A stretch of DNA of 64,000 nt. Origin: Saccostrea echinata (Eukaryota). Below the pieces are notes generated by a model, which saw only the letters and a list, made by a program, of their open reading frames with translations, was not told the origin of the DNA and made no database searches. Shown piece after piece: positions 10,873 through 63,770 of this stretch; the stretch's first letter is position 1; each line of letters starts with the position of its first letter. The translations under genes and the position numbers were made by a program. The stretch lies in assembly GCF_033153115.1 (NCBI RefSeq), contig NW_026889769.1, forward strand, positions 4,650,001 through 4,714,000, written 5' to 3'.

Positions 10873-12955
10873 ATGTCCCATTACAGGGTAAACAGCGTTA
10901 GTGGGTCGGCAGCCTCAGTCTCTTTTATTGGCATTCCGTACAGTGATATCGACAGAACAGGTTCTTTTAAGCAATTTTGGTATTGAAATCATGCAAAATG
11001 AGTAAGAAATTTATTTTAAGTTATTTTGTCAAAATTATAAAGTCAGAGCATGAGGATGTACTACATTTGTTAAAAACGAAAAGTTACAGATTAGATATAT
11101 ATCACTTGTCAATCAATTTATTCTCTCAAAATCATGTAAATGATACATGAGGTATAGAAACATATAAAAGCATCTAGACACATAATACAGTGGGTCAAGC
11201 AAAAGGTGCGATTAATTAATCCCAACTGATGGGGAGGACTGACTATACTTTTAATTTTAGAAGTAAATGTATATAATTTTTTCAAAGACTCAACATCTTT
11301 TAGACACATGACTTCACAGAACTTCACAGTTATTTGGTTAGAAGAAAATTGTCGGTTAAAAAAATCTTTTCTCAATTGCTTGTATGTAATATAGTGATAT
11401 TCATCTCATATCTGATTACTATTGTATAAGCTACATTTAAAAATGCTATAATTTTAACTTTTTGAAGATTCATAACCTTTACTATTTCACTTTTGAACGT
11501 ATTGATGTTTTAAACTTTGTATATTTTTAATCAAACTGCATCTGTCAAAAATATTATCTATATATTATATAAAAAATATTATATATTATATTTTTTTTAA
11601 AAATCCTGAAGTTTGTCATTTCTCCTTTATCATATTGTTTAGTAAATACATATATATAATGCTACATAATTTCTTTTCTTTTCCAAACACAAGTTTTGCC
11701 CAATGTATTATAATCTAGTAAATATTTATGTATAATGGTAACCGCCCAGTTTCTCCTGAATCATATAAATGTAAAAAATATTTTAAGGCTGCCTACCCTT
11801 TGAAAAAAAAAATAAGTATCCTTTTTTTCAAATTCAGACATAATTTCCAAAAAAAAAGTCGGAAAAAGTCGACTAGAACTATTGGACGTTGGATAGTGAC
11901 ATATTCGAAAGTTATTCTGATGTCACAGTTTTCGAAAAGTAAAAGTTAAAAACAAGATAAATCAGGAACGGCCAAAACATTTTCTGAAATGTAGCATTAT
12001 CATTGCACTAAATTTTTAACTATAGCAATTTACCATTTACCATATAAAAATATCGATTTATATATTTAATGAATTATTGACATTTTGCGAGATGTATTCT
12101 TGTAATTAAATCCATTAATTTATGTCTGTATACTAAAAAAATTCATCTCTACTATAGTTATGTAAATCGTTCTCCATTTTAATAGGACACTGGGCAGTCT
12201 GGTGTATTTCTAAAATGTTTGAAGCTGCACGCTTAGCGGCTCTCCTTGATGGGTTTCTGGACTACAGACGAATCATTGACGAGGAAAATGCCTTAGCCAT
12301 TATCAAGCAACAGTTGAATTTAGATCCTAAAGTACATAGTGTGAGTTTAACATCACCGATGAAATTAAAGTTTGATCATGAATTTAAACAATTAAAGAAA
12401 ACTTCCATCATGTTTGCTGTTAAGTTAAAAAACGAGGCCACAGAGGAAATTCTTGGAGAAAATTTCATAAAAGTGGTGAGAATAAATAGGAAAACACGGC
12501 GCTCTTCTTCATTTCCTGAATATTTCTACGAAAAATATGCAGCTTTCATGAATACCCCCGGTCATTCTGGCACTGAAAAAGAAGACTTACCGGAAATTCC
12601 CAGGCATGCTTATAAATATGTCGTTATTCCAGGACACAGCGACGAGGATTTCAATGGCCACCTGAATCAATCCTCCTTTATTCGATTTTGCATGGATGCA
12701 GCAACGAATGCGTCTTTGAAAGGGTATTATGAACATTACACAAGTGATATGTGTTTGTACCCCTCATTACAGTGGACTATAAGCTATGTTGGTGAGAGTC
12801 TTGCTGGTGATCAGCTAACTATATATACATGGCAAAAAGAAGATACTGCCGACAATATAAGATTTGCTATCGTACGAAATGGCAATCGAATTTTCTATGC
12901 GTCAACAGTATTTGGAAAAAACGCAAATGAAATAAGATTTTGGCATAAATTGTAA
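10873..12955 (+). CDS. Acyl-ACP-thioesterase-like double-hotdog protein, copy 2; join(10873..10960,12186..12955), 285 aa
   Basis: Exon A MSHYRVNSVSGSAASVSFIGIPYSDIDRTG, phase-1 GT..AG intron, exon B HWAVWCISKMFEAAR... Motifs DIDRTGH (first hotdog) and DEDFNGHLNQ..SYVGE (DxNxHxN..E, as in the catalytic hotdog of FatA/FatB-type enzymes). The donor GTTCTT is weak but positionally identical to copy 3. Confidence 0.85.
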
Positions 12956-16996: not shown

Positions 16997-18036
16997 ATGT
17001 CGCATTACAAAATATTTTCGACAAGTGGAACATCAGCATCTGTTTCATTTTTTGGGATCCCTTATGCAGACTTTGACAGAACAGGTATTATTCCCTATCT
17101 TTAAAAAGGTATAAATGAAATATACGTTTAAAATTTTATCTGAGTAAAAAAAAACAAACCATACTGATTATAAGACAAATACCACAAATGAAACTGTCAC
17201 TTAGCGTATGATGTTGCCACTTTGCTATTCTTTATGATTTTCTATTTGAATCAAATTTTTCTAAAGGGCATTGGGCAGTATGGTGTATTTCGAAGATGTT
17301 TGAAGCCGCCCGAATAATTGCATTGTATAATGGATTTCTAAATTTTACTAAAATTGATGGACGAGAGGCAGGTATGGTGATTGTGAAACAGCAGTTAAAA
17401 CTCAGTCCCAAGTTACACGAAATGACCTTAAAATCGAAAACTCAGTTGTTATTTGACATGGTGCTGCTAGAAGTCGGAAAAACGTCTATTTTATATCGGA
17501 TACAATTCAAAGATGGGTCCACTAATGAAATTCTTGGTGAGAATTTTCTCAAATTTGTCAGAATGAGCAGAAAAACAAGACGACCTATGGTATTTCCAGA
17601 CTGGTTCTACGAATTGTACGCATCGTATATGAATTCTTCCGGTCATCCAGTTTTGTCGAAAGAACCTTTGCCTGAAATTCCAGACAATGCATATAAATTC
17701 GTTGTTGTTCCAAATCATAGTGACACGGACAGGAACAATCACGTGAACCAATCATCATACATCAAATTTTGTATGGATGTTGCCACAAAAGCAGCCTTAA
17801 GTGGACATTATGTTCACTTTTCTGAAGACATGTGTCTCTACGCCTCCCTTCAATGGACAATAAGTTACGTTGGTGAAAGCATGGCAAATGACGAACTTAA
17901 TATATTTACTTGGCAAAGGGAGTATAAACCAGAACACATATATTTTTCAATTTTGTTAAAAGGTAGACCAATTTTTCATGCTTCAACAATTTTCGATGAG
18001 GAGGCAAAAGGAATCAGAATAGCTTCTAGAATATAA
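16997..18036 (+). CDS. Acyl-ACP-thioesterase-like double-hotdog protein, copy 3; join(16997..17084,17267..18036), 285 aa
   Basis: MSHYKIFSTSGTSASVSFFGIPYADFDRTG|HWAVWCISKMFEAAR..., 182-bp GT-AG phase-1 intron, HSDTDRNNHVNQ and SYVGE motifs, AATAAA at about 18065. Confidence 0.88.
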
Positions 18037-24902: not shown

Positions 24903-24983
24903 GTTTTGTGGCACGCCTACTTTCACGAGCTGCAGTGGCATTTTTCGCGCTTCAATTTAGTTGGGATTGTTTTAAGCTAAAAG

Positions 24984-25909
24984 ATGGACGTAGATTTTTT
25001 GGATAATGACTTCAAAGTTGAAGAAATAGACGACATGACATTGTCTCAAGTGTGCGACGAAATGGAAGCTTTCGACGGATTACTGAACATGAGCCTTACA
25101 CAGACGCTAGCAGAGTACGACACAGGATCGGAGCATGGTGAATTTAAGCTTGAATGGGACTTTTTGAGTGAAAATGAAAACAGTTCGAATTTGCCGACCA
25201 CATCGGGTGATCGTTTTGCGCCCCCAGTGACCGAGAGTGAACTGAAATCTCTAATTGAAAGCCAGGAAAACATATTAAACACTAAACAAAACACTAGATG
25301 GGCGGTCAACGTGTTTGAGAAATGGAGAACAGGCAGATCCGAAACTATTCCAGAACTTCAATTCCAGGGCAGCGAGGAAATGAATTACTGGTTACAACGC
25401 TTTATAGTGAAAGCTAGACGGCAGGATGGTAAGGACTACCCCCCTAAGAGCCTGTACTTGATTTCATGTGGACTACTTCGTTTTTTGCGGGACAAAGGTG
25501 TGTACGACAAAAACTTTTTAGACGAAAAAAACACAACTTTTATTGAATTTCGGAAAGTTCTAGATGCAAAAATGAAGTCGCTGATTGAAAAAGGCATAGG
25601 GTGTACTACGAAGCAGGCTGATCCTATTTTACTAGAAGACGAGGCCAAGTTGTGGGATGTTGGAGTGTTTGGAAAGAAAAATGCAGAACAACTTCAGAAA
25701 ACGATTTTCTTTTACGCCTGTAAAATCTTTGGTTTGCGTGGGTGCGACGAACATCATAACCTGGAATGTGAACAGTTTACTATTGGATCAGATCAGCTAG
25801 GAAAATTTATTGAGTTTACGGGTCGAAAAACCAAAACGTACAAAGGAGGGCTCGGACAGCTAAATGTGTGCAACAAGACCATTAAACATCACTGCCAGTC
25901 CGGTAAGAG

Positions 25910-25945
<36 letters not shown>

Positions 25946-26552
25946 AGGATGTACGCTTGCTCGCTCGCTCAGCTTACAAATTCAAAATTTTCTTGTAGGT
26001 GAGAGATGCATTGCTGACTATTTCGATCTATATCTGGATTCTCTTGGACGCCAAGGAACATTCTATCGAAGACCTCTTCCCGCAACATCTGAGGTGCCAA
26101 TCCGATACGGAAATCAAGTTGTGGGAATTAACAAGCTGAAAAACTTAATGCGAATCATCTGCACGGAAGGTGGTTTACAGGGTAATTATTCGAATCATAG
26201 CGGCAAACGCACTTGTGCGACCCAGCTATATATGTCTGGTGTTGAAGAGCAGCAGATAATGGATCGGACTGGTCATCGTTCTCAAGCAGGTGTCCGTAAA
26301 TACAAAAGATCCAGTGCGCAAATGGAAGCTAATGTGTCAAAGATCTTGGATCCGCCCAAAGAGTGTACCGAGAATTCTACTCCGTTGAATACTCTAGATG
26401 GATGCACTCCAGGTATTTCAGATGAGTGTCCCGTTATTCCACAGACTGCAGCAAATGTCCAGGGTGAGGGGGAACCTCAGAGCAAGAGATTCAAACCGAA
26501 CAGATTCCCGTTTGGAGAATTTAAAAATTGTAACATTACATTTCAGTTTTAA
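24984..26552 (+). CDS. Crypton tyrosine recombinase (DUF3504 / KCTD1-ZMYM-QRICH1-related); join(24984..25902,25999..26552), 490 aa
   Basis: A 96-bp GTAAGA..TTGTAG intron joins two ORFs in frame. Motifs NTKQNTRWAVNVFEKW, ARRQDGKDYPP, FGLRGCDEH (R), KTYKGG (K), FYRRP, NHSGKRT (H), TGHRS (H), VRKYKR (Y). Confidence 0.9.
25912..25940. repeat. (CT)n microsatellite in the Crypton intron
   Basis: Direct observation. Confidence 0.95.
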
Positions 26553-43700: not shown

Positions 43701-46507
43701 ACTTAGGTTCTATCTGGATGACGAAACAGGTGAGACCAACATACATGAATAAAGCCAAACACAAACCCATGCCCTCTGCATGCTCTGTATTTACACGCTT
43801 AAAGGGTACCATGGGCAGAATGAAATAAACTAGCATAGAAAAAATAGTTCGAGGACTTATCATTTTCTGGCAGATCAAACTTTAAATTTTCTACCTATTA
43901 TAAATGTGACTGGGGTCTTGTTGAACACAAGTGTTCACTGAATTCAAAGTTACTGGGTTCCTTTTGATTTAAGTTTTAATTTGCACTGGGTCTGGGAATG
44001 CACAATGGCAGAATTCCTTCAAAAAACGAACACCAATGTGTATGTTTTACTCAACTATAGGCAAGTACGCAGGATCTCAATATCCTTACATCCAAAGCAT
44101 CAGTTTAAAGCATACCATGTATATTTCCTACGTTGGTACGTACATCTAATGTAAATACATAAAGTTGAATTAAATCACTAATGAAAATTTGTATCGATAT
44201 GAAATCAAAAAGTCGCTTAAAAACGACTTTAAAAATAAAACAAACTGAATAAAATAATTTAGTTACTGGTTACGAAAGAATTAACAAAAATAGTGCAGCA
44301 GTGATGCATAAACTAAAGTAGATGTATGCTTTATGATGTGTATTTAATTTAGAGTTAAGTTGTATATTGTGTTTGATTTTTCGCCCACATGCCTCCTTTT
44401 TCAGAAACAAATCCACAACAACCACGTACAGTAGTTCACTATTGCACTATCGAGCACTGAATTTGGAATCGATGGTGATGACGATGACGCAACGGTGCAG
44501 TAGTGCCATGATGATTTTGTGATAATGCCAGAATGATGATAAAATGACGCGATGGCAGTGGTGTAATAGCATGATGGAGCAATAGCAAACATCGCTTCAT
44601 CGTCATATTATCATCCTTTCTACATCATTGTGTTATCTCATTGCGTCACAGTGCTATTGCTCCATTGCGTCATTGTGCCATATTGTCATCGCACCATCGT
44701 GCCATTGAACCATCAACCCAAATCTCGATGGTGCAATAGTGACTGTGTGATCCTATTTGGATTTCATAGGTATTTCTTATGGCTATATGAACATGTATAT
44801 TAAAACTTTGGATATGGATGATACTTGACATAAATATAATGCGACGAAATATCATCTGGAATTCATTTATCATATAGATATGGTCTGACAATGATATAGA
44901 AAAGGTAGTCTGAAAACTTTTTTTTCTTTCATTTTCAGTGTATAAAAATTTGAGAATGGAGGACTGCACTGCAAATGATACCAGATTAGAAAACGGAAAT
45001 AGTTTTCAATTCTTGGAGAGGGGGTATGTATTCAAAGTTCTTACTCTGAGGATAAATATAATTACATGTAAAAATACACTCCAAGGATCTCATATTCTTT
45101 TTATGTTTGGGCTATGAATTTGTGCCAGATTTGAAGGAGTTTCAACCTAAATCTTAGATAGCTACATATCTACATATTTTCTTCCTGGACAGATGTCCTA
45201 CTGAAGCCGGAGCCGCTATAATGGTAAATACTGATGGACAAACTCTTACTAGAATTACCCATCCCGTCAGAGGAGAAGGAGAAGTTGCTGCTGCAATCTT
45301 GCCTATCTACGCTTTCAAATTCAAAAGTACAGGAAACGTAGCTTTCAACTGTCAATTAAAAATCTGCCGAGATGGCGAGGATTGTAATCCGGTATGTGTT
45401 CACTTGTCTGTTATCGTCTGTGTCTGCCTTTTGACATCCTCTTTCAGAGTTCATAAAATATCATATCTGAATACATTTTCTTATAACATTTAAAGCACGT
45501 TCATATTTTCAAACACTTGTATACGACAATGTTACTTGTCATCCTCTTATCACATTCCCTTTTTTAACAATAAATGTCTTTTTAACAGAATTGTGGGGCA
45601 CCTGCAGCGGACGACGCTGCCCCTGCAGCAACAGATGTTGCGCCAGTGGCACCAACAAATGGTCCAGCTGATGCAGTTCCCACTGATGTGGCTCCTACTG
45701 ATGTCCCTGGTGTCGCCCCAGCTGATGGCGGAGCTCCCGTCGATGTAGCTACAGATGTTCCACTTGATGCGGTTCCTACCGACCCTCCTGCCCCCGCAAG
45801 ACGAAGAAGGCGAGCAGCATCAGGGGAAGAAGGGAAAATATTTTCTGCTAAGATTTCTGTTGTTGATCCATTTGAATCTCAATGGCGTGCCAATCAAGTA
45901 ACCAGTGTACCTCCACCAACAACAGGTATATTGAATAACACTTGTTTGTATGTTTTAATGTAATTTGATAGGCACTATCTATTTTCCACTCAAACTCCAA
46001 CTGTCCTGATTGAATTATTTATGCAATCTATCGACTAAGGAAATGCCCAGTAAGTCACATGATACTTTGTCGGTCTATTGAAGGATAGACTAGTATACTT
46101 TTTACTTATTTGTGACAAAGAAATATATTTCTTATTGGGTGTGTCTTTGTTTGGAAATAAGGAGTCCAAGCCAGCAGTGGTAATTTGTATGAACTGAACA
46201 TTGACCCCAACAACTATATATGATTAGTAGGTTATATTTTAGACTTTATTTGAAATGTTTAGCAGATAATAATATCCATATTTTCTTTATTTTAGAATCA
46301 CCAGCAGAAGAAAAGACATGTTTCCGCTCTCAGGAGATCCTGATTGTCATCATAGTTATGTCTGCGTTTGTCTTTGTTTTACTAGTAGCCTGTCTTGTAA
46401 TGTCTTGTACCATTCTAAAATTAAGACACAAGTTTAATTGCCGTGAAAATGAAAGTGAGTCACATATGCCTAGATTTTTTCTTCCTCATGCCAAACTACA
46501 AGCTTAA
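40786..46507 (+). CDS. EGF-like + zona pellucida domain membrane protein (EGFZP / shell-matrix type), 552 aa; join(40786..40837,42025..42153,42320..42436,42650..42882,43064..43215,43587..43729,44939..45023,45193..45391,45589..45925,46296..46507)
   Basis: All introns are GT-AG and phase-compatible (1659 nt in total). Signal peptide MNLKEILFVGFILFVNIVFA; EGF1 CLNGGTC..CTCPPGFEGYNC; EGF2 CRNGGTC..CFCTADYIGAQC; ZP motifs (V.VGDVIKL, DCTA, GCP, AFKF..VAFNCQLKIC); RRRRR furin site; TM ILIVIIVMSAFVFVLLVACLVMSC. Confidence 0.9.
40855..41262. mobile_element. MITE in the first coding intron of the EGF-ZP gene
   Basis: About 55-60-bp imperfect TIR TTTCTAAACAGC..CAACAA..CAACGAAATTTGG / CCAAATTTCGTTG..TTGTTG..GCTGTTTTTGAAA. 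Confidence 0.65.
44403..44768. mobile_element. Degraded foldback MITE (GATGGTG-rich subrepeats) in an intron
   Basis: GTAGTTCACTATTGCAC..GTGCAATAGTGAC inverted ends; same family as 53848-54160 and about 59010-59220. Confidence 0.55.
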
Positions 46508-49128: not shown

Positions 49129-51143
49129 GCCTTCAAGATCTTAGCGGCCAACATTACTTTACTGATTAAACGGAACGCTAACATAGCCGCTAGGTGACAA
49201 ATTTTAAGAGCCATTCTCTGTAATGACTTGAACTTTTATAAAGGAGCTGTGGCACGCATAGTCATAGAATTTCTCCAAAATCTCTATGATAAAAATCTTT
49301 GATACTGTAAACTAAAATCAGGCAAAAATTGGTTGCTACGTGTCATGGTTACCATAGCAACATATCCTAAAGTTAGAAAAATGGCATTTTTCAACATGTT
49401 CAGAGTCCCACAGTTAACGTTTGCGGCAAAGCAAACAAGTGGCAATGACTGTTTCCGAAAGTTGAAGGCCTGGTGTCTTGAATGCGTGATAAACATCTTC
49501 GGTAAATCAACTATAGCATACGTTACTATGGAAACAATGTATTCAAAAGTAATAATTTTGTTCATTTAATTTTATAAAGTCATACACTTAAGAATAAAAA
49601 CAATTTTAGGTTGAAATGAAAGCAAATAATAGACAAGAGATCCTTGTAACATATACCAAGGACAAAATATGATATTTCTTATAGGTTGGCAATGGTTGCC
49701 ATGGTTTTAATACCACGAAGGGATTTTAAATTTACTATCTTAGTGTTTTAATCTTATCCTATCTTTTTAAAAAGCATATTTCTATATAACTGATGATCAA
49801 TTGTTAAAGGCGTTGGTGTGACCCTAATTTTCACATTTCAAAAAATTCAATTTCAATTCTTTAAATAGTGCGTTGCTATGGAAATAAGGCGAAAAAAACA
49901 TGCATAAAAATCTGAAAAATACTCTGTTTCCTTGGATACGTACCCTTTTAAGTAGATTCCCAAAACTTTAATTATTGATATATGTCAACAACTAACCTGA
50001 CTTTCAATTTTGATACCACCCAATCTCTAACTGGATGCAAAAAGCTGGCACATAGGGTCTAATATTGACATAAATTAACAAAATCGAACATTCTCTCTTC
50101 TTGGTAACCATAGCAACAGTGTTGTATTTTTCAACAACCTTTATCAATATAATATATTCAACTTTAGTTCTACGAGATAAGTACTATTCAAGGTGATTCA
50201 AATAATACGTTTCTTGATTAAAAGGTTAGTAAATTCCTAAAGCAGCAAAAAAATATCACTTTAAACAACTAGTACGTTGTTTCCATGATTGCACTGCAAA
50301 GTAACAATTAATCTCAATTTTTCTTATGTTATAGGTGTTGCAAGGTCCTAAGGATGTATATGTGCCAGTCATGAACTTTATTGTTTTTCCTCAAGATAGT
50401 AGCATTAACCCAATCATAGCAACATATTTTGCATGGTGACACTGTGTTACCATGGCAACCATGAAAGTTATTTTTAGAATAATATTGCCAATACCTAATT
50501 ACATAAGGTCAAATATTTTTCATTGTTTTCCTTAGGTTGTTGATTGAGTTTGATCATGTAACATCTATCATTTGTGAATATTGAGCGTTTTTCAGCATCT
50601 AAAATGTATTCAAAATGTACCCATGGTTACCACTTACTTAGAGATAAATTCTAAATAGTTTCTTTATAGCATAAGTGGCAACAAGGTGTCATGTTTTTGG
50701 GAGAATGGTTTGTTTGTTCTTCTTAGTCTTTATCAAGGCTTAATAAAGATTTAAAGTAGCTGAAAATCTCTATTTTTACAACTTTTATGGCTGTTACCAT
50801 GGCAACCAAGACACATAGCAACGAAATTTTAATTGATATATGTTTCTGGTGTCAGGTTGTAATAATGCGCAAAGTTTCATCAAAATCGGTGACCATGCGT
50901 GGCAAAGAAGTTTAAGTGGTTACAGAGAATCGCTATTAAATTCAAGATATCTCAGTTTTAATTCATTTTTGAAGCAAAGTGATCAAATTCAAGAGCAAAT
51001 GTGCGTTAAAAGAAAATGCAATAGGTACTCGTCTTTGATTTGTTACCAAGCGTCAAATATTTCATGTAGCAGCTAGACTTCCATATCATTCAAGATTATA
51101 GCCCTTTGTTTAGCCAAGTAGCCGCTATGATCTTGAAAAGGGC
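49129..51143. mobile_element. About 2-kb non-autonomous DNA transposon rich in GTTNCCATGGNAAC palindromes
   Basis: TIR GCCTTCAAGATCTTAGCGGC / GCCGCTATGATCTTGAAAAGGGC; several X-box-like motifs; no coding capacity. Confidence 0.65.
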
Positions 51144-51384
51144 AACCCATTTCCAAAGGAATAAACTATGAAAATACACCAAAAAAAATATAGTGAACTT
51201 TAAACCACGTTAAAATATTAAGATGTATTTTTAATAAAATGCTCATTTAAAATGTTCATAATATTATTACAAAGTTAATATAACAATTCACAGAGTCACT
51301 GATCAGAGTTGCTCTATTTCGGTATCTCGAGGGTTAGGACAGTCCGATACAGTCCCTTTGCTGGAGGGCAGACACACCTCCAGT

Positions 51385-53268
51385 TCATAGGTTTCCTCTC
51401 AGCTGTGGTTCAAAGAACATCCGGAAATTCTGATAAACTCTTCCAGCAAGCTGGGCCACATTTTCATTGCGAATCTCTGCAATCTTCTGATAAACTTTCC
51501 CGATAAGTTGTGGACTCATCGGAAATTCAACTCCACACTGTCGGTTGGGACTATTTGATTCCACTAACAATCGGTCACCTGGAATCTCCTGTACCCCTGC
51601 TATCTGTACAGCTGACATTTCTGTGACGTGTCCACTCACCCCGAAGAATACAGGTCGGCCAGACTTCGTCCAAATTCTCACCTGCTCCGGTCCTCCGGTA
51701 AAGTTATGCAAGTATACTGGCACCAGGGTCGGTACAAATAATCCATCCAGAAGCGTAAGACAATCTTGAGTGGGTACAAGACCCAAAGGGTCATCTGGCG
51801 AGCCCTTCAACAATAACACCATTCCTGCGTTAAAATCAGCTCTGCGGAAGAATTCCGCCAACACGAACCTCTGCTGACATTGGCTCGTGACTTCTGAGTA
51901 ATCCAACCCTATGTCTCCAACCACCCAGTTCTTATCCCGGCAGGTCGCAACCACATTTGCTACATCCCTGGGGAGTGCAAAGTCTACCTCTCCTGGGCGT
52001 ATCCCCTTTGCTACTACCCAGTAATTACTGATATCTGGTAATGGCTCTTCGTGGAAACCATAACCTACACAGCCGCCAATAATACCTACCGGTTCTTCAA
52101 TTGGGCATTTATCGTCGCTCAAAAACTTGTTAACATCCCTTCCCCAGATACTTGGCATCCTTCCAGGATGCCACAGGCAATCAACTACCTGCAACAATGG
52201 TAAACCAGTGTCCCTCGACCAAGAATGGAGATCACTTCTGCTAACACACTTTACATTAGACACTGGTAAACTTGGCAGAGTAGACGCATTAAAGACAGGT
52301 TTCTTCAAGGCAGGTTCCAGTTCTTTCAGGGAATTTGGCATACTGTCTTGAACCACCAGCACCTGAGAGTTAGGCCATTCTCCAACAATGTGCTCTGGCA
52401 ACTCAGACTCCCAACACTCTCTGAAGTTAGATTGAGATTGATCCAACTCATACCAGTCTCCCATAAATTTAGCCCCATTAATCAGGATTGCCATGACCAG
52501 TGGATGGGCTAGCATAGCCACATGCGGTGACCATCCCATTCTTACTTGTCTTAGCTGAGTCTCCAATGGAGGATTCACCCCTAAGTGCATCGAGAGGCGA
52601 TACATGACCTCTCGGATCTGGACTGAAAAACTCCATTCCACTTTCCCCATTCTCTGCTCTACCCAAAGGCGGAGTTGCTCTAAAGTGGCATCTTGGTTAA
52701 CACTTTGTGGTGTCAACCACAAAGTTTCGGCCAACTCCATTAAAAAATTCAGAAAAACTGGGATATCATCTATCCCTTTGGCATGAAATTCCCATATGTG
52801 AGTAAACATGGGAGTGGCACCTGAAAACTTGGCACTGCAGGTTCGAACGGCACACTTGGAGTATCCTTGAGATTGGTTCACAACCAACTGGTTCCTATCC
52901 AACATACAGTCTTCTGCTCCTACTGGAACAAGGTGCATCCTGTCATTGGCTGAGAGGTCCCTGCTATTAATACCACTTGGTTTTGGTGTACTGGAATTCA
53001 TCAGTCCTGAGTCCCTCGACTTGCTTCCTAATCCATATAACTCTTCATGACAGTGAAGTTCCTCTACCTTGCTCAGCAGACTCGACCTATCTCTCCCGAC
53101 AGAAGGTATTCTTTTATCTCCCGTTATATAGTTCAACAGTCCTCTTCCTTGCCCCTGTACTCTGCCTCGATCTGCTTTGGGCAGCCTCTCCTCCACTACA
53201 GGCTTCTGGAGAATATCATCATTTTCTTCAAAGTCCTCGAGTTCAAAGATACGATTAGGGCTATCCAT
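51385..53268 (-). CDS. C2H2 zinc finger + degenerate TatD-fold protein, 627 aa, single coding exon
   Basis: Uninterrupted 1.9-kb ORF. Acceptor TTTTCCTGTGTTTTGTAG| lies 10 nt before gctATGg (53268). ZnF CAVRTC-SAKF-SGATPM-FT-H-IWEF-H. TatD-like motifs in correct order: VVDCLWH, GIRP, VGDIGLDYS, YLHNFTG, FGVSG, IPGDRLLVESNSP, N(F)RMFF. Confidence 0.8.
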   Translation of the reverse strand: MDSPNRIFELEDFEENDDILQKPVVEERLPKADRGRVQGQGRGLLNYITGDKRIPSVGRDRSSLLSKVEELHCHEELYGLGSKSRDSGLMNSSTPKPSGINSRDLSANDRMHLVPVGAEDCMLDRNQLVVNQSQGYSKCAVRTCSAKFSGATPMFTHIWEFHAKGIDDIPVFLNFLMELAETLWLTPQSVNQDATLEQLRLWVEQRMGKVEWSFSVQIREVMYRLSMHLGVNPPLETQLRQVRMGWSPHVAMLAHPLVMAILINGAKFMGDWYELDQSQSNFRECWESELPEHIVGEWPNSQVLVVQDSMPNSLKELEPALKKPVFNASTLPSLPVSNVKCVSRSDLHSWSRDTGLPLLQVVDCLWHPGRMPSIWGRDVNKFLSDDKCPIEEPVGIIGGCVGYGFHEEPLPDISNYWVVAKGIRPGEVDFALPRDVANVVATCRDKNWVVGDIGLDYSEVTSQCQQRFVLAEFFRRADFNAGMVLLLKGSPDDPLGLVPTQDCLTLLDGLFVPTLVPVYLHNFTGGPEQVRIWTKSGRPVFFGVSGHVTEMSAVQIAGVQEIPGDRLLVESNSPNRQCGVEFPMSPQLIGKVYQKIAEIRNENVAQLAGRVYQNFRMFFEPQLRGNL

Positions 53269-53847
53269 AGCTGTTGGCCTACAAAACACAGGAAAACATT
53301 AAATATATGCAAATAGAGACAATTCAAGTGCAAATTTTATTTCTTCATTTTAACAAAAATGAACTCTTTATCCAATATTTGCACATGCTCCCCATTGTTG
53401 CCCAAACCTACACAAGCTATCACTACATCCAACTTGACTGCACTGAGCACTCCAGGTAAATATATAGGGAAGTAGGGTATGGACTAACCACAGACCAGAG
53501 ATATTCCCACACACCCTGGGTAAAACCAGTTACTGAACCATTGGCCCCTTAAGATTTGTTCTACCACAGATGCAGTACTGTTTCAATCTAGCCCTCCTCT
53601 TCAGCACTGAGTTGCTTAGGAGTTTTGGTTAACCCTTTATCACTCGACATAACCCAGGATAGGGGCTAACTTGGTCATGTATTGAATTTCAATATTTAAA
53701 TTGTACCTTATTTTCTTTACTCCTGGGCCCTAGAATTTAGAATTGCTACAGGAATATGATAATGATTATACCCTTCAATGGGTCCTGATGAGAGGAAGTT
53801 GATAAATACCGAGGGCTGCTATGACAGGTTTGACAATATTTAGAAAT

Positions 53848-54160
53848 TATGGAATCTGGGAAGGGCCACATAGTTCACTATTGAACATGTAGGTGCTGTG
53901 GTGATGACATAACTGTGTGATGACACACAATGGTGCTATGAAGAGGGTGCGATAGCACAATAAAGGGATAGCAAGCATCATTTCAACACTCATGGTTTTA
54001 TTGCCTTCTTGTCCTTTAGTTCCATTGTGCTATTGCACAACTGCACCATCATGCTATCACTTCATCATGCTATTGCACCATCATAGCATCATATTGTGCA
54101 ATCAAACTAAACCATGATGGAGAACTGGTGAACTACATGGCTATATATTCGGATTCTATA
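53848..54160. mobile_element. Foldback MITE
   Basis: TIR TATGGAATCTGG..GGCCACATAGTTCAC / GTGAACTACATGGC..CGGATTCTATA. Confidence 0.65.
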
Positions 54161-55177
54161 AGGAATAACTCTGGAATCCTGATTGGGTCACAGAGCTACT
54201 ATTGCTCTATCGAGATTTGGGTTGATTCAATGGAGAGATGACAATATGGCACTAGACGACTGCAATGGCACTATGGAGCATTTACTAGCTCCAGTGATTC
54301 ATTTTGAAAATGGTTATCATGGGTCCAAAGGACCCCTCTTAATGACAACAATGAGTCCCATGCCAAAATCAATATGCCCAAATCCGAAGGTACCGCATAT
54401 TAGCTACTACAGAGGAAATTCTGGTGAAATATAAAAGGGTATTGACTACTGCACGAAAGTGCAAATGTTTTATTGTAGCTGTGAATGGTCTATACTTTTA
54501 CTATTGAATTGGAAGTAAGAATACATGATTTTGTGGCATAAAAATAATATATTGTCAACTGTGCACTTTGTTTCTATTTTTAGATCGTAAATACGATCTT
54601 GTCATAAAAAGCACAGATTCTATTAAATGAAGTAAAGTAAGTTTAAGTTTTTTTAAAAAATGAAATATAGTCAGAAAGAAAAATTATCAAAATTTATACG
54701 TCTTAGCTTCTAAACATGCTAAAGAAAAAAATTATAATACACAATATACAGCTTAACGAAGCCAAGTCTAATTATTTCTACCCTAGAGATTTTGATAGAT
54801 TTTCTTGCATGAATTTTTACTATTATAATTATTTTAGGATAAAATAATGGAATGTTTACCATCCCGATTTCTTAGGGGGGGGGGGGATCTCAAAAGTTGT
54901 CAAATTTACTATTGACCCTATAGGTATTTGTTGGAAAAGCGCCAAATTATCACATTTTCCCCATGTTTTTCTGCTCTAGGGATTTCCTTTTCAATCAAAT
55001 ACATGAAAGTTATTAGAAAAAGTCATCAAACTGTGATATTTCAAAAAAGTTGACCATCTGGGTTGGTTTAGGAGTTATTACAAAGTTTTTCCCAAATACC
55101 CAATACCTCTAAATTTGCCATATTGCGGTATACTTTTTGTATATATCACATGTATCAGAGCAAATGAATTATTGTGG

Positions 55178-55180
<3 letters not shown>

Positions 55181-55215
<35 letters not shown>

Positions 55216-58075
55216 CACATTGGCAAGGCAAAAGCACAAATCAGTTCAGTACTGAAAAGATTACGGGGGGGGGGGGGGCTTGAATTTTAAACTACCTGAT
55301 GATGCTTCTATGTCAATATATAATTTGTTTAATTTGTTTTAACAAATGGCTTTGTTGTACTTGAGAAGATTTTTTCAAAAATTCCCATATATTCCTCTGT
55401 AAAAATTTTATCCCCCATTGTGGCTCCTCCCTATCCCAGGGGTCATCATTTGAACAAACTTGAATCTACACTACCTGAGGATGCTTCCATATCAATATGA
55501 CTAAACATAGCTTTTCTGTTCTTGAGAAGAAATTTTTTTCTATATGTTCCTATGTAAAACTTTCGATCCCCTTATTGGGCCCCACCCTACCCTCGGGGGT
55601 CATCATTTGAACAAAATTGAATTTACACTACCTGAGGATGCTTCCATATCAAAATGACTAAACATGATTTTCAGTTCTTGAGAAGAAGATATTTTCCTAT
55701 ATGTTCCTATGTAAAATTTTTGATCCCCCATTATGGCCCATCCCTATCCCCTGGGGTCATCATTTTAACAAACTTGAATCTACACTACCTGAGGATGCTT
55801 CCATATCAAAATGACTAATCATGGCTTTGCAGTTCTTCATCAGAACATATCTTCCTATATATTTCTATGTAAAACTTTGATCCTCCATTGTGGCCTCACC
55901 CTGCCCCCGGGGGGTCATGATTTGAACAAACTTGAATCTACACTACCTGAGGATGCTTTCTTATAAATATGACCAATTAGGGCTTTGCTGTTATTGAGAA
56001 GAAGATTTTTAAAGATTTTTCCTATATATTTCTATGTAAAACTTTGATCCTCCATTGTGGCCCCGCCCTTCCCCCGGGGGTCATGATTTGAACAAACTTG
56101 AATCTACACTACCTGAGGATGCTTCCATATAAATATGACTCATCATGGCTTTGCTGTTATTGAGAAGAAGATTTTTAAAGATTTTTCCTATATATTTCTA
56201 TGTAAAACTTTGATCCTCCATTGTGGCCCCGCCCTACCCCTGGGGGGTCATGATTTGAACAAACTTGAATCTACACTACCTGAGGATGCTTCCATGTAAA
56301 TATGACTCATCATGGCTTTGCTGTTCTTGAGAAGAAGATTTTTAAAGGTTTTTCCTATATATTTCTATGTAAAACTTTGATCCTCCACTGTGGCCCCGCC
56401 CTACCCCCATGGGTCATGATTTGAACAAACTTGAATTTACACTACCTGAGGATACTTCCACATAAATATGATCAATCAGGGCTTTGCTGTTCCTGAGAAA
56501 AAGATTTTTAAAGATTTTTCCTATATATTTCTATGTAAAACTTTGATCCTCCATTGTGGCCCCGCCCTACCCCTGGGGGGTCATGATTTGAACAAACTTG
56601 AATCTACACTACCTGAGGATGCTTTCATATAAATATGACCAATTAGGGCTTTGCCGTTATTGAGAAGAAGATTTTTCCTATACATTTCTATTAGGGATGT
56701 CAACGAATAATCGACTATTCGACTATCAGTCGAATGGACCGACGATCGAATAACGAAACGACATTCGAATAAATAAATTCAATAAAAGAGTGATAAAGAG
56801 ATGGAATTCTCATCCTAAAATTGAGAAACTGTCTTTCCTCAGACACAGACGATAAGATAATTTTCCTCATTAAAAACTGCCTTTACATGTAGAGAGTACA
56901 GTAATTAGAAATGCTTCCCTTCCGCGAGAATTATTTGTCAATTGATATGTTGTTTTTGTAATAAAATTATCTCGCTTTACTGCGCTTTCTTTGTAAAATT
57001 ATTAATTGGACTTGATCTCATACCATGTACCCATTATAGCCGTGAAATGTTTGGACACTATGGTAATTATTATAAAATTAATATTCTTTTACATATTTTA
57101 AAGGCATTTGATGGTTGGTACAAAAAGTATATTCAAATGTTTAACATTATCACAGACACCGTGTGTGCCCCCTCGTTTTAATAAGCTTTTAAAAAAATAT
57201 ATCGTACTGTCATTTTTTATGCTTCCTAAAAAAAACGACTTTACAGACCGATTTATGAACATGATTGATGGGGAAATCATACATTTTGGTGAATTAGCGG
57301 TCTATATTTAGTAAATATAAACACGCTATCCACATTTTAGGTCCATGTGAAAATCTGTGTGTAACATTTGATGTAACTTTTTAATAAATTTAAGAAAAGG
57401 GGATTTGGGGTTAAATATGTCATGTACCATTGAAGTTTGAAATAAAAATTTAGTTTCCGAAAAAGTTTCGAATATATTCGACTATCGTTCGAATAATGCA
57501 ATGGAATATTCGACTAAAGAAAATAAATATTTTCACATCCCTAATTTCTATATAAAACTTTGATCATCCATTGTGGCCCCGCCCTACCCTCAGGGGTCAT
57601 GATTTTGACAAATTTGAATCTACACTACCTGAGGATGCTGCCATATAAATATGACCAATTAGGGCTTTGCTGTTATTGAGAAGAAGATTTTTTAAAGGTT
57701 TTTCCTATATATTTCTATGTAAAACTTTGATCCTCCATTGTGGCCCTGCCCTAACCCCTGGGGTCATCATTTTAACAAACTTGAATCTACACTACCTGAG
57801 GATACTTCCATATAAATATGACTCATCATGGCTTTGCTGTTCTTGAGAAGAAGATTTTTAAAGGTTTTTCCTATATATTTCTATGTAAAACTTTGATCCT
57901 CTACTGTGGCCCCGCCCTACCCCCGGGGGTCATGATTTGAACAAACTTGAATCTACACTACCTGAGGATGCTTCCACATGAGTTTCATCTGCCCTGGCTT
58001 TGTGGTTCTTGAGAAGAAGATTTTTAAAAGATGCTACTAATTTTTCACTAATTCTTCATTATCTCCCCTTGAAAG

Positions 58076-58125
<50 letters not shown>

Positions 58126-58128
58126 ACT

Positions 58129-58183
<55 letters not shown>

Positions 58184-58213
58184 GTGAAAAGTTTACAGAC
58201 GGACGGACGGACG

Positions 58214-58245
<32 letters not shown>

Positions 58246-58304
58246 GACTACAGACAAAATGTGATCAGAAAAGCTCACTTGAGCCTTCAGCTCAGGTGAG
58301 CTAA
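55181..58304 (+). mobile_element. Complete HINE carrying about 12 monomers of the about 166-bp oyster-type satellite
   Basis: AACAAGAGGCCCATGGGCCACATCGCTCACCTGAGC start, tandem monomers, (GACG/GACA)n, AAAGCTCACTTGAGCCTTCAGCTCAGGTGAGCTAA end palindrome. Confidence 0.9.
56692..57543. mobile_element. hAT-type MITE inserted in the satellite array
   Basis: TIR TAGGGATGT / ACATCCCTA, perfect 8-bp TSD ATTTCTAT (56684-56691 / 57544-57551), subterminal TTCGA motifs. Confidence 0.9.
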
Positions 58305-59324
58305 AAAACAATGTTAGATACATTGCTGGTATGTTTCTTTTGATGCAGTCAACAGTTCTTATTAAAATGTCCATAGACATTTTGAATACTCAAGCGAGTC
58401 ATGCGTTATTCTTCAGCGTCATGCATTGCTTACAGGACTGGAAAACAGTGATGTTGTGAAAGCCATTTCAGCGTTTGTTCCTAATTATTGTCTTAAAAGC
58501 ACATTGTATGACTCATAAACATTACAGATAATGTAATATAATGTTAATTTTGTATTAAAATTACAATACTTAGGAAAGCTGTTACGTTGCATCTACGACT
58601 GCATGAAACTAAAAAGCTGCGTAAAGTCATGCGTACTCAAATTAGACTAGGCCTCGTTAAATACAAAGGTATAGTATACGCTTAGAAATGTTCCACAGAA
58701 GACATAATCGAACTATGCTATCTAACTTTAAATTATTTTCTGATAATTGCTTGTTTATTGTAATTTAACAGTGAATTGTGAAATCTGACCTGTTGTTGGC
58801 AAACTGATACCTGGTAAAATCGCTCATGCATATCACTTAGCACGTGGATATGATGCAATTGGTCATTATATCGAAACAATTTAAAATAATAAATGTCCTT
58901 CTATGAATTTATTGCGTCCATTGGGATGCACATTTGTTGAAACAATGCGTCCTTAGCAAAATTTGTGCGCAATTTATGCAGGACGCAGATCAAAATGAAT
59001 CACTGTAGCTCTATGATGCAATGGTACGATGAAGATAACAAAATGACGCAATGATGAAGAAAAGGGTGATAAAATGACGATGAAGTGATGCTTGCTATTG
59101 CTTAATCATGTTATCACACCATTGTCATTGCGTCATCTTATCAACATCCTGGCACTATCACAAAATCATTGCATTATTGCAGCTTCAAAGTCAATGATAG
59201 TGCAGTAGTGAACTACTTGGTTAACAAGCTGTCAACTTATCAACAGAGAATACAATTTTATATAATCATTTCAAAGATTAAAAAAAAATTGAAAATCTTC
59301 TCTAGCATCACAATATGGTGAAGG

Positions 59325-60573
59325 TACAATAGCCAAGAAGGGTTAAATTAGAAAAATGAAAAAAAAGAATTAAAAAGTCGCAAATAACAAGATAAAGTCA
59401 CAATATTGAGATAAAAAGTCGTAATTTCAACTTAAGAAAGTCAAAATAACGAGATAAAAAGTCGTTATTATGACTTAAGAAAGTCGTTATTACGACTTTA
59501 GAAAGTCGTAATAAACTATTATTGAATCAGATATAAAAAGTTGTTATTACAACTTATAGTTGTTATTATGACTTTAGAAAGCAGTCTTCGGCAAATCCTG
59601 GGAGTCCGAAGCCCGGGACCTGGTAAAATTGAGAGCGGGAATGTGGAAATTGCATACTTACAAGCCCGAAGGGCATGTAAATTCTGAGGCCTAAGCCTCC
59701 GTATTATCAAATTAAATAATACCAATAACATTAAATGTACTTAGAAGTCTGATTTTTTATCTAAAGTGGAGCACGAAATAAAATTTTAACAACAGTTTAT
59801 TCTACCGCGATTTCCAAGGAACTCTTTTGCAAAGGAGACACAAAAAGTATACACGTTGAAAACAATACGTGACTTCCAAGGAACTCTTTTGCAAAGGAGA
59901 CACAAAAAGTGTACAGGTTGAAAACAATATTAATGGTGAGACAATAGATCGATAGAAATGGATTTCAGATCATTTCCTTGGCATGAAAAGGCAAGTAAGA
60001 ATAAAGTTACTTGATAAAATTCTGGGCATGTAAATATTTGTTTGGGCTAGTGTAATAAGTGGTTAAACCTGCCCGAAGGGCATGTATTGAAAAAAAGATT
60101 TGGCGAAGACTGAGAAAGTTGAAATAACTTCGAGATAAAAAGTCATTATTACGACAAAAGAAAGCCATTATAAAAGATAAAAAGTGGCGATTATGAAGTC
60201 GTTATTACGACTTACTTGAGTTGTACTAACGAGATAAAAAGTTGTCATTACAAGTAAAAAGTCGTTATTCCGACTTAATAACTAGATAAAAAGTCGTTCT
60301 AAGAGATAAAAAGTTGATATCAATAACGAAATAAAAAGTCATTATTACAACTTAATGAAATCGTAATTACGACTTTTTATCTCGTAATAAAGACTTTTAT
60401 CTCATTACGACTTTCTTAAGTCGTAATTACGACATTGTATCTCGTTATTGCGATTTTTTTTTTTTATCTTGTACGACTTTTTATCTCGTACGACTTTTTA
60501 TCTCGTTATTACGACCTTTTTGGTGTTAATTTTTTTTTTCACTTTCCATTTTTGACCCTTCTAGGCTTTCGTA
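59325..60573. mobile_element. Foldback MITE with about 21-bp AAAGTCGTAATAACGAGATAA subrepeats
   Basis: TIR TAC..AGCC.AGAAGGGT.AAA..GAAA.TGAAAAAAA at both ends; subrepeats switch orientation at about 60365. Confidence 0.8.
59582..60112. mobile_element. MITE nested in the foldback element
   Basis: TIR CAGTCTTCGGCAAATC / GATTTGGCGAAGACTG, flanking AGAAAG direct repeat, GCCCGAAGGGCATGTA twice, about 62-bp tandem duplication at 59812-59929. Confidence 0.75.
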
Positions 60574-62049
60574 CAAAGGGACCTTATGGCACATAAGATA
60601 TTGTGCCAGGATATTAGCATCGTCTCAAGCCACGGTCCGGAGTCCGCATATAGCTCTCTCCTACCAGAATGGGAGAGGATCGTACATTTTGGCCGTGGTT
60701 TGCGACAATGGGATATTAAGTTATTGAGAACAGTTACCAGGGGGTGAATGTATTTAAATGTGAACAGAACCGACATTTATGAAATTTCCGCATATTTTTA
60801 TTGGCGGTTTCCGCATAAGTAATGCAAAAAAATTAATTATACTCACAGAAATACGTTAAAGCAGCACAAGATGTTGCACTACACTGTGAACACACTGCAG
60901 CTACGCGACAAGGGGAATACAGGTTGCGTCTATTTACCCAAATGGACCTATATGAAGTAAAACACTGTCAAATGGACCAGATTCAACTGAATGGACAAAA
61001 AGTTATTGAAATAAACAATTTTCTTCAATTTATATTTTACAGAGTAAAATAATAAAAGTGAATTACATGTATGTATTATATATTTCTTCTTTTTTTAAAG
61101 ATATTGAATGGAATTTATTATAAATGGAGTAAGTAACAAAGTGAAAAGTTTCAGCTACAAAGTACTTGTTGAATTCAAATAGAGTATCGAATAAAATCCA
61201 GTAGCATTATACAAACAAAGCATTATGCCATAACGTGATTTATCAGTAGTGCACATTATCGATTATCTCATATTTAATCACAGGCACTTGGGGTATGGAC
61301 CCCCCCCTTCTCAATTTTTTTTTCTTTTTAAATCTGGGGTCGAGTCACCTTTTCCCTATTTTTATATTCTAATATGCACTATATATCATCAATAATATAA
61401 CTCTTTTGTCTCTATATGCTGTTTTTAAATATACCGTTTTCGACTGATACATAAAGAGAGAAGGCTTGCAACTCTTTTCTCGTCGTCTGCCTCACCTCGC
61501 TTAAACTTCGCCTGATTATTTATCTAAAGCATAAGAAAACATGGAATATGCATACATCAATAAATTTGTTACACATTCTTCTTCCTTCTCATATTTCCAT
61601 TTAAATTTTATGTGCCCCCGATTTGTAAATATTTCGATTAAATCAACCGCATCTAGGGTAAATTTTGTTGATGTGCACTAGCTGGGACGGAAGTGCAATA
61701 ACGGTAGTAGTAATTGTCAGTATCTTAGGAAAAACGGATACTCAGTCTCATATAGAAGAGTTCGACTATACTCCGGGGGTGGGGGGTAGGAGATGGGGTG
61801 GGGAAGGCAAACAACCTCGTTGTCAATATTTTTTATACTTTTATAGCAAAATAGTGTTCTAAAAAAGCCCCCCCCCCTTTTCAGTACTACTTGCCTGTAG
61901 AATTTTCTCAAGAATGTCCAAAAAACGTTATATCATTGATCGGCAATTTTAAATAGAATAAAAATTGTCTTTTCAGATGGAAAAAGATATACGTAGGCAT
62001 ATGTCTTTTTTTTTAATACGTGAAATCTACCTTTTAAAAAAAGTTTATT

Positions 62050-63229: not shown

Positions 63230-63770
63230 ACATTTTTTTAAGGATGGCCTAAGAACAATCTTTAAAAATTTTCTTCTAGGAATACATAAGGAAAATCTTT
63301 AAACACCTTCTCAAGAACAACAAAGCCACGATTGGTCATATTTATAATATGGTAGCATCCTCAGGTATTGTAGAATGAAGTTTGTTCAAATCATGACCCC
63401 TAGGGGTAGGGAGGGACTACAATGGGCGATAAAAGTTTTACAAAGGAATACATAGGAAAAATCTTTAAATATATTCTTCTCTAGAACAGCAAAGCCACGA
63501 TTGGTCATATTTATATGAAAACATCCTCAGGTTATGTAGATTCAAGTTTTCATGTTCAAATCATGACCCCCTGGGATAGGGATCGAGAGGCCATATTGAG
63601 TAATCAAAGTTTTACATAGGAATATATAGGTAAAATCTTTTATAATCTTTATCTCAAGAACATCAAAGCCATGTATAGTATAGATATATTTATATGGCAG
63701 CATCCTCAGGTAGTGTAGATTTGTTCAAATCATGACTCCAGGGAGTAGGGAGATGCCACAATGGTTTATC

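Follow-up and report, generated by a model that had tools for sequence, protein, structure and literature searches.

The single-exon gene that we describe here lies in a 64,000-nt stretch of a Saccostrea echinata contig (the window) and is, with near certainty, the third open reading frame (ORF3) of a clade of Gypsy LTR retrotransposons. It has lost its mobility, and we regard it as an orphaned, probably co-opted retrotransposon accessory gene. In the full explanation that we propose, about which we are evenly divided, the gene descends from an old Gypsy insertion from which the LTRs, gag, and almost the whole of pol have disappeared, and the stranded ORF3 is spliced to a unique host exon via the element's own acceptor. 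The host would then keep a likely nuclease-dead finger-TatD protein that binds rather than cuts, its proposed ligand being the RNA or RNA-DNA structures on which the element's enzyme acts.

Origin of the gene and its genomic relatives

The 923-Mb host genome contains 73 matches to the window protein. The best paralogues share 54 to 55% identity with it over amino acids 91 to 627 and immediately follow integrase, GPY/F, and PHD domains. Direct repeats (170 to 272 bp, 96 to 99% identical) bound five of the six regions examined; they begin TGTAGT and have a purine tract before them, and the LTRs of the elements with the best paralogues are 270 bp long. The sister elements are Ty3/Gypsy retrotransposons with a third ORF, arranged in the order gag, protease, reverse transcriptase (RT), RNase H, integrase, PHD, spacer with acceptor, ORF3, polypurine tract (PPT), and LTR. 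The position of the window gene matches that of the Gypsy ORF3, which lies behind the integrase C terminus, has its own acceptor, and precedes the PPT and LTR. The arrangement extends across the clade: Gypsy domains were also detected upstream in 16 of 18 more distant TatD-bearing loci (exceptions L083 and L100), and three distant loci (L086, L094, and L137) are intact elements with LTRs that are 99 to 100% identical.

Several features of these elements were recorded in passing. L032:107-4717 is an internally deleted element (98.5% LTRs); its gag-protease continues in frame into an open ORF3. The gag ORFs at L088:971-2821 and L094:7121-8644 start with a helix-hairpin-helix motif (Pfam HHH_3), and a weak dUTPase-like match follows the protease in L032 and L086.

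Phylogenetic analysis (without rows P0006 and P0008, and with an L138 row that lacks one exon) placed the window protein as sister to the ORF3 of the L035 element with support of 100/100, inside the Gypsy-borne TatDs and apart from host TATDN2/3. The RT tree splits into the same three groups as the TatD tree; inner support is modest, but the agreement fits one old acquisition of TatD.

The window protein is present in NCBI/UniRef/nr. In a protein library clustered at 50%, 894 proteins match it at E ≤ 1e-30, and the named relatives come from oysters, abalone, and pearl oyster. A zinc finger ahead of the barrel occurs in 113 of the best 150 library relatives; thus, the finger-TatD fusion is not peculiar to this locus. 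No locus for P0002, P0003, or P0017 was recovered from the metagenome and viral contigs scanned. One finger-clade TatD relative, P0025, is filed as a protein of a Sedimenticola MAG, possibly host DNA in a bacterial bin.

Parts of the ancestral element are still recognizable around the gene (Table 1). Above the ATG, a 350-nt stretch can be aligned to the sister element over its integrase end, spacer, and acceptor (score 139 versus a shuffle maximum of 38). The integrase C-terminal PHD remnant sits 170 to 360 nt upstream of the ATG; it is split over three frames by two, probably three, frameshifts, and its finger is partly deleted. The spacer that follows includes the polypyrimidine tract and acceptor. 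On the other side of the gene, homology to the element ends just short of the PPT position, and no LTR follows the 3' spacer. No LTR, gag, protease, RT, RNase H, or integrase core was found in the window and 30 kb upstream, and a possible integrase match near 54100-53990 was not significant (37 versus a shuffle maximum of 49). The window locus lacks the set that defines an intact LTR retrotransposon (LTRs, gag, and PR-RT-RH-IN), and the gene is single copy and immobile. Among 10 matches, none was a close DNA sister of the locus with more than 74% local identity.

Table 1. Features of the window gene, its upstream exon, and the surrounding element remnant.
Feature	Coordinates	Strand	Evidence or remark
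Non-coding upstream host exon, no ATG	60847..60986	−	Spliced contigs; donor ttct/GTGAGT
GT-AG intron, 7568 nt	53279..60846	−	3' end at the ORF3 splice acceptor that came with the retroelement
Integrase C-terminus/PHD finger remnant, decayed	53440..53628	−	tblastn E 6e-4; E 7e-5; DNA score 139
Spacer from element, between pol stop and ORF3	53279..53439	−	Collinear with young elements
Coding exon, 627 aa	51385..53268	−	ORF3 of Gypsy LTR retrotransposon (near certain), now stand-alone
C2H2 finger (52854-52783) and helical bundle with distal invariant His255	52459..52866	−	
TatD TIM barrel, 3/8 site residues kept	51409..52194	−	Pfam, Foldseek, library alignment
3' spacer from element	51130..51307	−	Scores 63-67 versus shuffle maximum 43-47; control family 38

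The first-pass annotation had proposed that the gene arrived as mobile-element or retrocopy cargo, with no RT or integrase nearby. The first of these origins was borne out, as the relatives are ORF3s inside LTR-bounded gag-pol elements; the second was not, because element spacers and the PHD remnant flank the gene. Its remark on neighboring domains holds for RT but not for integrase, of which the decayed C-terminal remnant survives. An ordinary host TatD paralogue (a TATDN2 ortholog or retrocopy) that served as the source of the elements' captured ORF3 is a very improbable alternative. Intronless host TatD genes do occur in this genome, in the form of a tandem pair of TATDN3-like genes on C56 (L131:7501-8319 and L132:4670-5515) with intact sites. 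However, the two host TATDN2-like genes (on C29 and C22) are multi-exon and form their own clade elsewhere in the tree, and ORF3s with intact sites branch below the window gene. The flanking pol remnant and the nesting among Gypsy ORF3s refute this alternative: given the element flanks and its sister position to a mobile ORF3, the window gene is neither a TATDN2 ortholog, as the annotation had allowed, nor a retrocopy.

Other elements and gene-like frames occur in the same region. A 1366-aa protein-primed DNA polymerase B (Pfam DNA_pol_B_2) with further intronless ORFs beside it, a Polinton-like element, lies 20 kb before base 1 of the window (L162-L163). Within the window are split DUF3504/tyrosine-recombinase frames that are Crypton-like (24981-26552) and three related thioesterase-like (4HBT_2) frames (1339-2175, 12158-12955, and 17212-18036; Pfam scan of two).

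Domains, fold, and active site of the encoded protein

The sequence features described in the first-pass annotation were confirmed. The frame runs on the minus strand from the ATG at 53268 to the stop at 51385 without an internal stop, giving 627 aa, and the splice acceptor (tgtgttttgtAG/G at 53280-53279) lies 10 nt 5' of the ATG. Note that position 53278 is the first base of the exon and not of the codon frame. The C-x4-C-x12-H-x4-H finger is present at 52854-52783 (C139-x4-C144-x12-H157-x4-H162), and the C2H2-helical module of which it forms part is common to all ORF3 types of the clade. The TatD-like barrel is matched by Pfam PF01026 (TatD_DNase; E 9.8e-18, aa 416-619) and, likewise, by the structure model.

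An AlphaFold model of aa 135-627, built on a 14-row alignment, reached a mean pLDDT of 74 (a 4-row alignment gave 37) and shows the finger-helical part as a folded domain that a disordered linker separates from the barrel. When this model was compared with the PDB using Foldseek, all 17 listed rows at E ≤ 0.001 were TatD-family or TatD-like amidohydrolase chains, the best with E 2.8e-10 and a TM to target of 0.77. By Pfam and Foldseek, a TatD-family TIM-barrel fold is present in the protein. A sequence search of the PDB gave a best match of only E 0.39. In BFVD, the fold search reached E ≤ 0.001 with one protein, which is from Yasminevirus and uncharacterized, and the ESM Atlas search with the finger-helical module returned no family (TM under 0.4). 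Envelope domains are absent, TatD being the sole Pfam domain and the fold searches yielding no env match. A search for longer fused forms of the protein found none, a result of little weight.

The altered motifs that had been noted (DCLWH, GIRP, GDIGLD, LLLKG, and ESN) and the kept HNFTG are all present. We scored the eight TatD site residues from HxH, GxHP, GE, H, H, and ExD. The window protein keeps three of them (H367, H521, and E570), and the other five are non-canonical (L365, R424, D452, L486, and N572). All eight are kept in 126 of the 146 complete library rows, and a state with five of eight changed occurs in only 5 of the 146. Among the relatives with an intact site is S. cucullata XP_062585372.1. 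The earlier reading as a pseudo-nuclease is therefore supported as probable, and judging from these residues the protein is quite likely catalytically dead.

The further idea that selection in the host accounts for every ligand loss was not upheld. The mobile sister family also keeps three of eight site residues, but there all three carboxylates are kept and the histidines are lost; the positions of L365, R424, and L486 are non-canonical in the sister too. The lost histidines of the sister indicate that degeneration of the site began in the mobile lineage and that most histidine losses predate the window insertion. Among site residues, only the two carboxylate changes are private to the window. 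At 190 outgroup-invariant columns, 14 changes are private to the window protein, and two of them fall on carboxylates, of which the site has three (P = 0.015, post hoc).

Mutants of TatD proteins bear on how much activity could remain. According to PMC10711561, TATDN2 E593A and E705A abolish degradation of R-loop RNA, D707A reduces it, and E593A binds R-loops only weakly; E705 is the equivalent of the kept E570. Alanine mutants of the equivalent Glu and Asp in TATDN3 are reported as impaired, whereas TATDN1 was stimulated by E112Q and two His mutants remained active as exonucleases (PMC10085689). We consider it rather unlikely that the window protein was co-opted yet is still an enzyme, acting for the host as a weak or altered RNA/DNA exonuclease with one metal held via H367, D452, H521, and E570 (for example, on an R-loop substrate as in TATDN2). 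The retention of E570, the conservative nature of both private changes, the intact fold of the model, the partial activity that D707A retains (PMC10711561), and the tolerance of TATDN1 to several site mutants (PMC10085689) would all permit this. Against it stand the rarity of so altered a site among library rows and the bridging Glu, described as essential in alanine mutants of TATDN1, 2, and 3 (PMC10711561, PMC10085689).

Transcript structure and retention of the frame

Contigs from six different sequencing runs were compared with the window. Those of runs X2 and X5 (two of the six runs; two samples from one study) break exactly at 53278, and the foreign letters beyond this point (31 and 38, respectively) have a single exact match in the window, at 60847 behind a GTGAGT donor. 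These junctions show a host exon spliced to the element's acceptor across a 7568-nt GT-AG intron. The RNA status of the runs is presumed, but a spliced junction indicates RNA. The upstream exon anticipated by the first-pass annotation is thus real, seen as junction 60847/53278 in both runs. Its 3' 31 to 38 nt are seen in spliced contigs, and its 5' boundary is placed from the AG at 60988-60987. The DNA of this exon (60847..60986) is single copy in the genome and lies 7.6 kb upstream of the window gene. Contigs of run X1, from another study, cover most of the ORF and stop before the junction; those of run X7 (organism C) do not cover the ORF.

Two contigs from X1 and X4 (2423 and 2494 nt) touch the window ORF in only two short stretches; by eye, their letters outside these stretches match the ORF3 of the sister element, which suggests that the mobile ORF3 is transcribed too. 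Tandem arrays of 166-174 bp lie inside and above the intron (55382-58028 and 63277-63671). Exon-like frames at 45158-46507 (+) resemble, by eye, the end of a ZP-domain membrane protein. A gene-trap into this downstream gene was considered and rejected, as its frames are on the plus strand.

We lean slightly toward host co-option, rather than slow decay, as the explanation for the open frame. The main alternative, less probable yet carrying real weight, is a relic on its way out: the ORF3 of a fairly recent, possibly non-autonomous insertion without function, whose strong acceptor by chance traps host-exon transcripts and whose frame is open by luck. The loss of both LTRs, gag, and RT and the lack of a close DNA sister count against such a relic. 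However, the changes in the window gene, if all neutral, imply a divergence of only 3 to 5.5%, which does not require a very old insertion, and a frame survives substitutions at this level 2 to 19% of the time (d of 0.05 to 0.02). Furthermore, the internally deleted element L032 keeps ORF3 open, so a decaying pol is also compatible with a non-autonomous element.

The clearest contrast is between the ORF, with 0 lesions in 1881 nt, and the adjoining, tenfold shorter pol remnant, with 2 to 3 frameshifts in 190 nt (P = 0.008 to 0.0008). This argues for retention, but it weakens to P = 0.06 to 0.6 once the choice of this frame among 73 matches is allowed for, a point on the side of the relic. An uninterrupted ORF3 was found in only 1 of 14 related loci checked, and the other 13 are broken or partial, which again speaks for co-option, as does the splicing to a host exon.

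Measures of selection are mixed. At the 190 outgroup-invariant columns, the window protein has 14 private changes versus 22 in its mobile sister, a difference that is not significant (P = 0.24); its tree branch, no longer than that of the sister (0.27 versus 0.47), counts for co-option. Synonymous sites relative to the sister are saturated (pS 0.83), and dN/dS therefore cannot be assigned to the host period. All six ORF variants in the contigs are nonsynonymous (P = 0.23 if neutral, 0.005 if omega is 0.2), as a relic would predict, although these contigs have a depth of 2 to 8 and the variants may be errors. The relic reading also gains from the ortholog searches: a word search gave only the window protein and an S. 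cucullata protein at 42%, and among the best 150 library rows and added sequences nothing but element ORF3s exceeded 43% identity to the window protein. CpG depletion (0.45 versus 0.8 in the sister) was not counted as evidence, since other mobile families range from 0.23 to 0.64.

Modular ORF3s, a second stand-alone copy, and known systems

Sibling families of the PHD-integrase subclade (support 100/99) have the finger-helical module in common, and its C, C, H, H, and distal H are invariant in 11 of 11 rows. Behind the module lies a TatD, an MBLAC1-like fold, or nothing, in which case the module is fused to pol. Young Gypsy elements with LTRs of 99 to 100% identity (L155:8176-9756, L159:7874-9451, and L161) carry an ORF3 made of the finger module and a metallo-beta-lactamase fold (E 9.7e-30 to human MBLAC1). 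In L151:896-9070, L153, and L157, gag, pol, PHD, and finger form a single 2725-aa frame with no nuclease after it. This modular ORF3, in which one finger module is combined with TatD, an MBLAC1-like RNase fold, or nothing, is new here. We found no description of a TatD- or MBLAC1-carrying LTR element in the open literature (Repbase, supplements, and subscription journals lay outside the search), and the term 'TatD' is absent from PMC6238403 and PMC13524379; term look-ups in PMC6962438 and PMC12709183 likewise revealed no such element.

Human MBLAC1 is reported to be an endoribonuclease (PMC6303110), and TATDN2 to degrade RNA in R-loops (PMC10711561). From the domain pairings we infer that ORF3 may comprise a targeting finger module and an exchangeable RNase, either TATDN2-like TatD or MBLAC1-like. 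Our preferred mechanism, which is speculative and which we hold only tentatively, is that this pair serves the elements as a targeted RNase and the host as a decoy. The mobile ORF3 would be made from a spliced message and would act on element RNA, hybrids, or host defence RNA; the dead host copy would compete for substrate or partners, as a decoy or dominant-negative directed against the young sister family. The weak R-loop binding of TATDN2 E593A (PMC10711561) weakens the simple decoy version. The swap of TatD and MBLAC1-like folds behind one finger module suggests that the elements need a targeted RNase, and it makes the role of non-envelope ORF3s directly testable. Among mollusc genes that carry the label 'TatD-like' or 'uncharacterized', many are probably ORF3s of retrotransposons.

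A second stand-alone copy, LOC133176619 (S. echinata, L083:4874-8200, C77), is a stronger domestication candidate than the window gene. This 1109-aa ORF contains two finger-helical modules and a dead-site TatD with three of eight residues kept, and no pol match was found in 40 kb around it. Its Ostrea edulis counterpart aligns over the full length at 53% with an identical dead signature, and a counterpart also occurs in Logan contigs. Both the S. echinata and the Ostrea proteins have Asp at the bridging Glu position, a state seen in only 4 of 149 library rows, in lineages apart from the window gene. Conservation of the dead site between Saccostrea and Ostrea points to repeated domestication. 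It is possible, though we think it doubtful, that oysters repeatedly domesticated the modular ORF3 of a widespread marine Gypsy clade, whose exchangeable RNase would derive from hosts, as a dead decoy, and that the bridging Glu was lost convergently. Domestication would then have come before the Saccostrea-Ostrea split in LOC133176619 and again in the window gene. If so, restriction factors against retrotransposons would have been built from a counter-defence nuclease and not from gag or env. Two stand-alone dead-site copies in one genome would add accessory nucleases to gag, env, and integrase as subjects of transposon domestication, and would supply candidate restriction factors for a farmed bivalve.

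Domesticated env and gag genes include the syncytins, Fv1, Fv4, and Drosophila Iris. Like these, the window gene is an element ORF kept after the loss of pol and spliced via the element's acceptor, with possible restriction of relatives. It differs in being a nuclease-fold accessory gene rather than env or gag, in that transcription enters from a host exon, and in being known from one species. With human TATDN1/2/3 it shares a TatD barrel of the HxH class and an N-terminal extension (PMC10711561, PMC10085689), and its intact relatives keep all metal ligands; unlike them, it is an element-derived single coding exon with a zinc finger and five changed site residues. Maelstrom and EXD1, cited in PMC5408684 as inactive nuclease folds that keep RNA binding in transposon control, would be a model for the proposed, hypothetical role of the window protein, although the fold differs. 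There is also a likeness in architecture to the LTR retrotransposons Juno and Vesta of bdelloid rotifers, for which PMC5408684 describes enzymatic ORF3s (a DEDDy exonuclease and a GDSL esterase), typically expressed from spliced messages. In both cases, a non-envelope nuclease occupies the env position of a Gypsy-type element. The rotifer enzyme is of the DEDDy type, whereas the oyster ORF3 has a TatD or MBL fold behind a fixed C2H2-helical module, and the window gene is a stand-alone, host-spliced copy.
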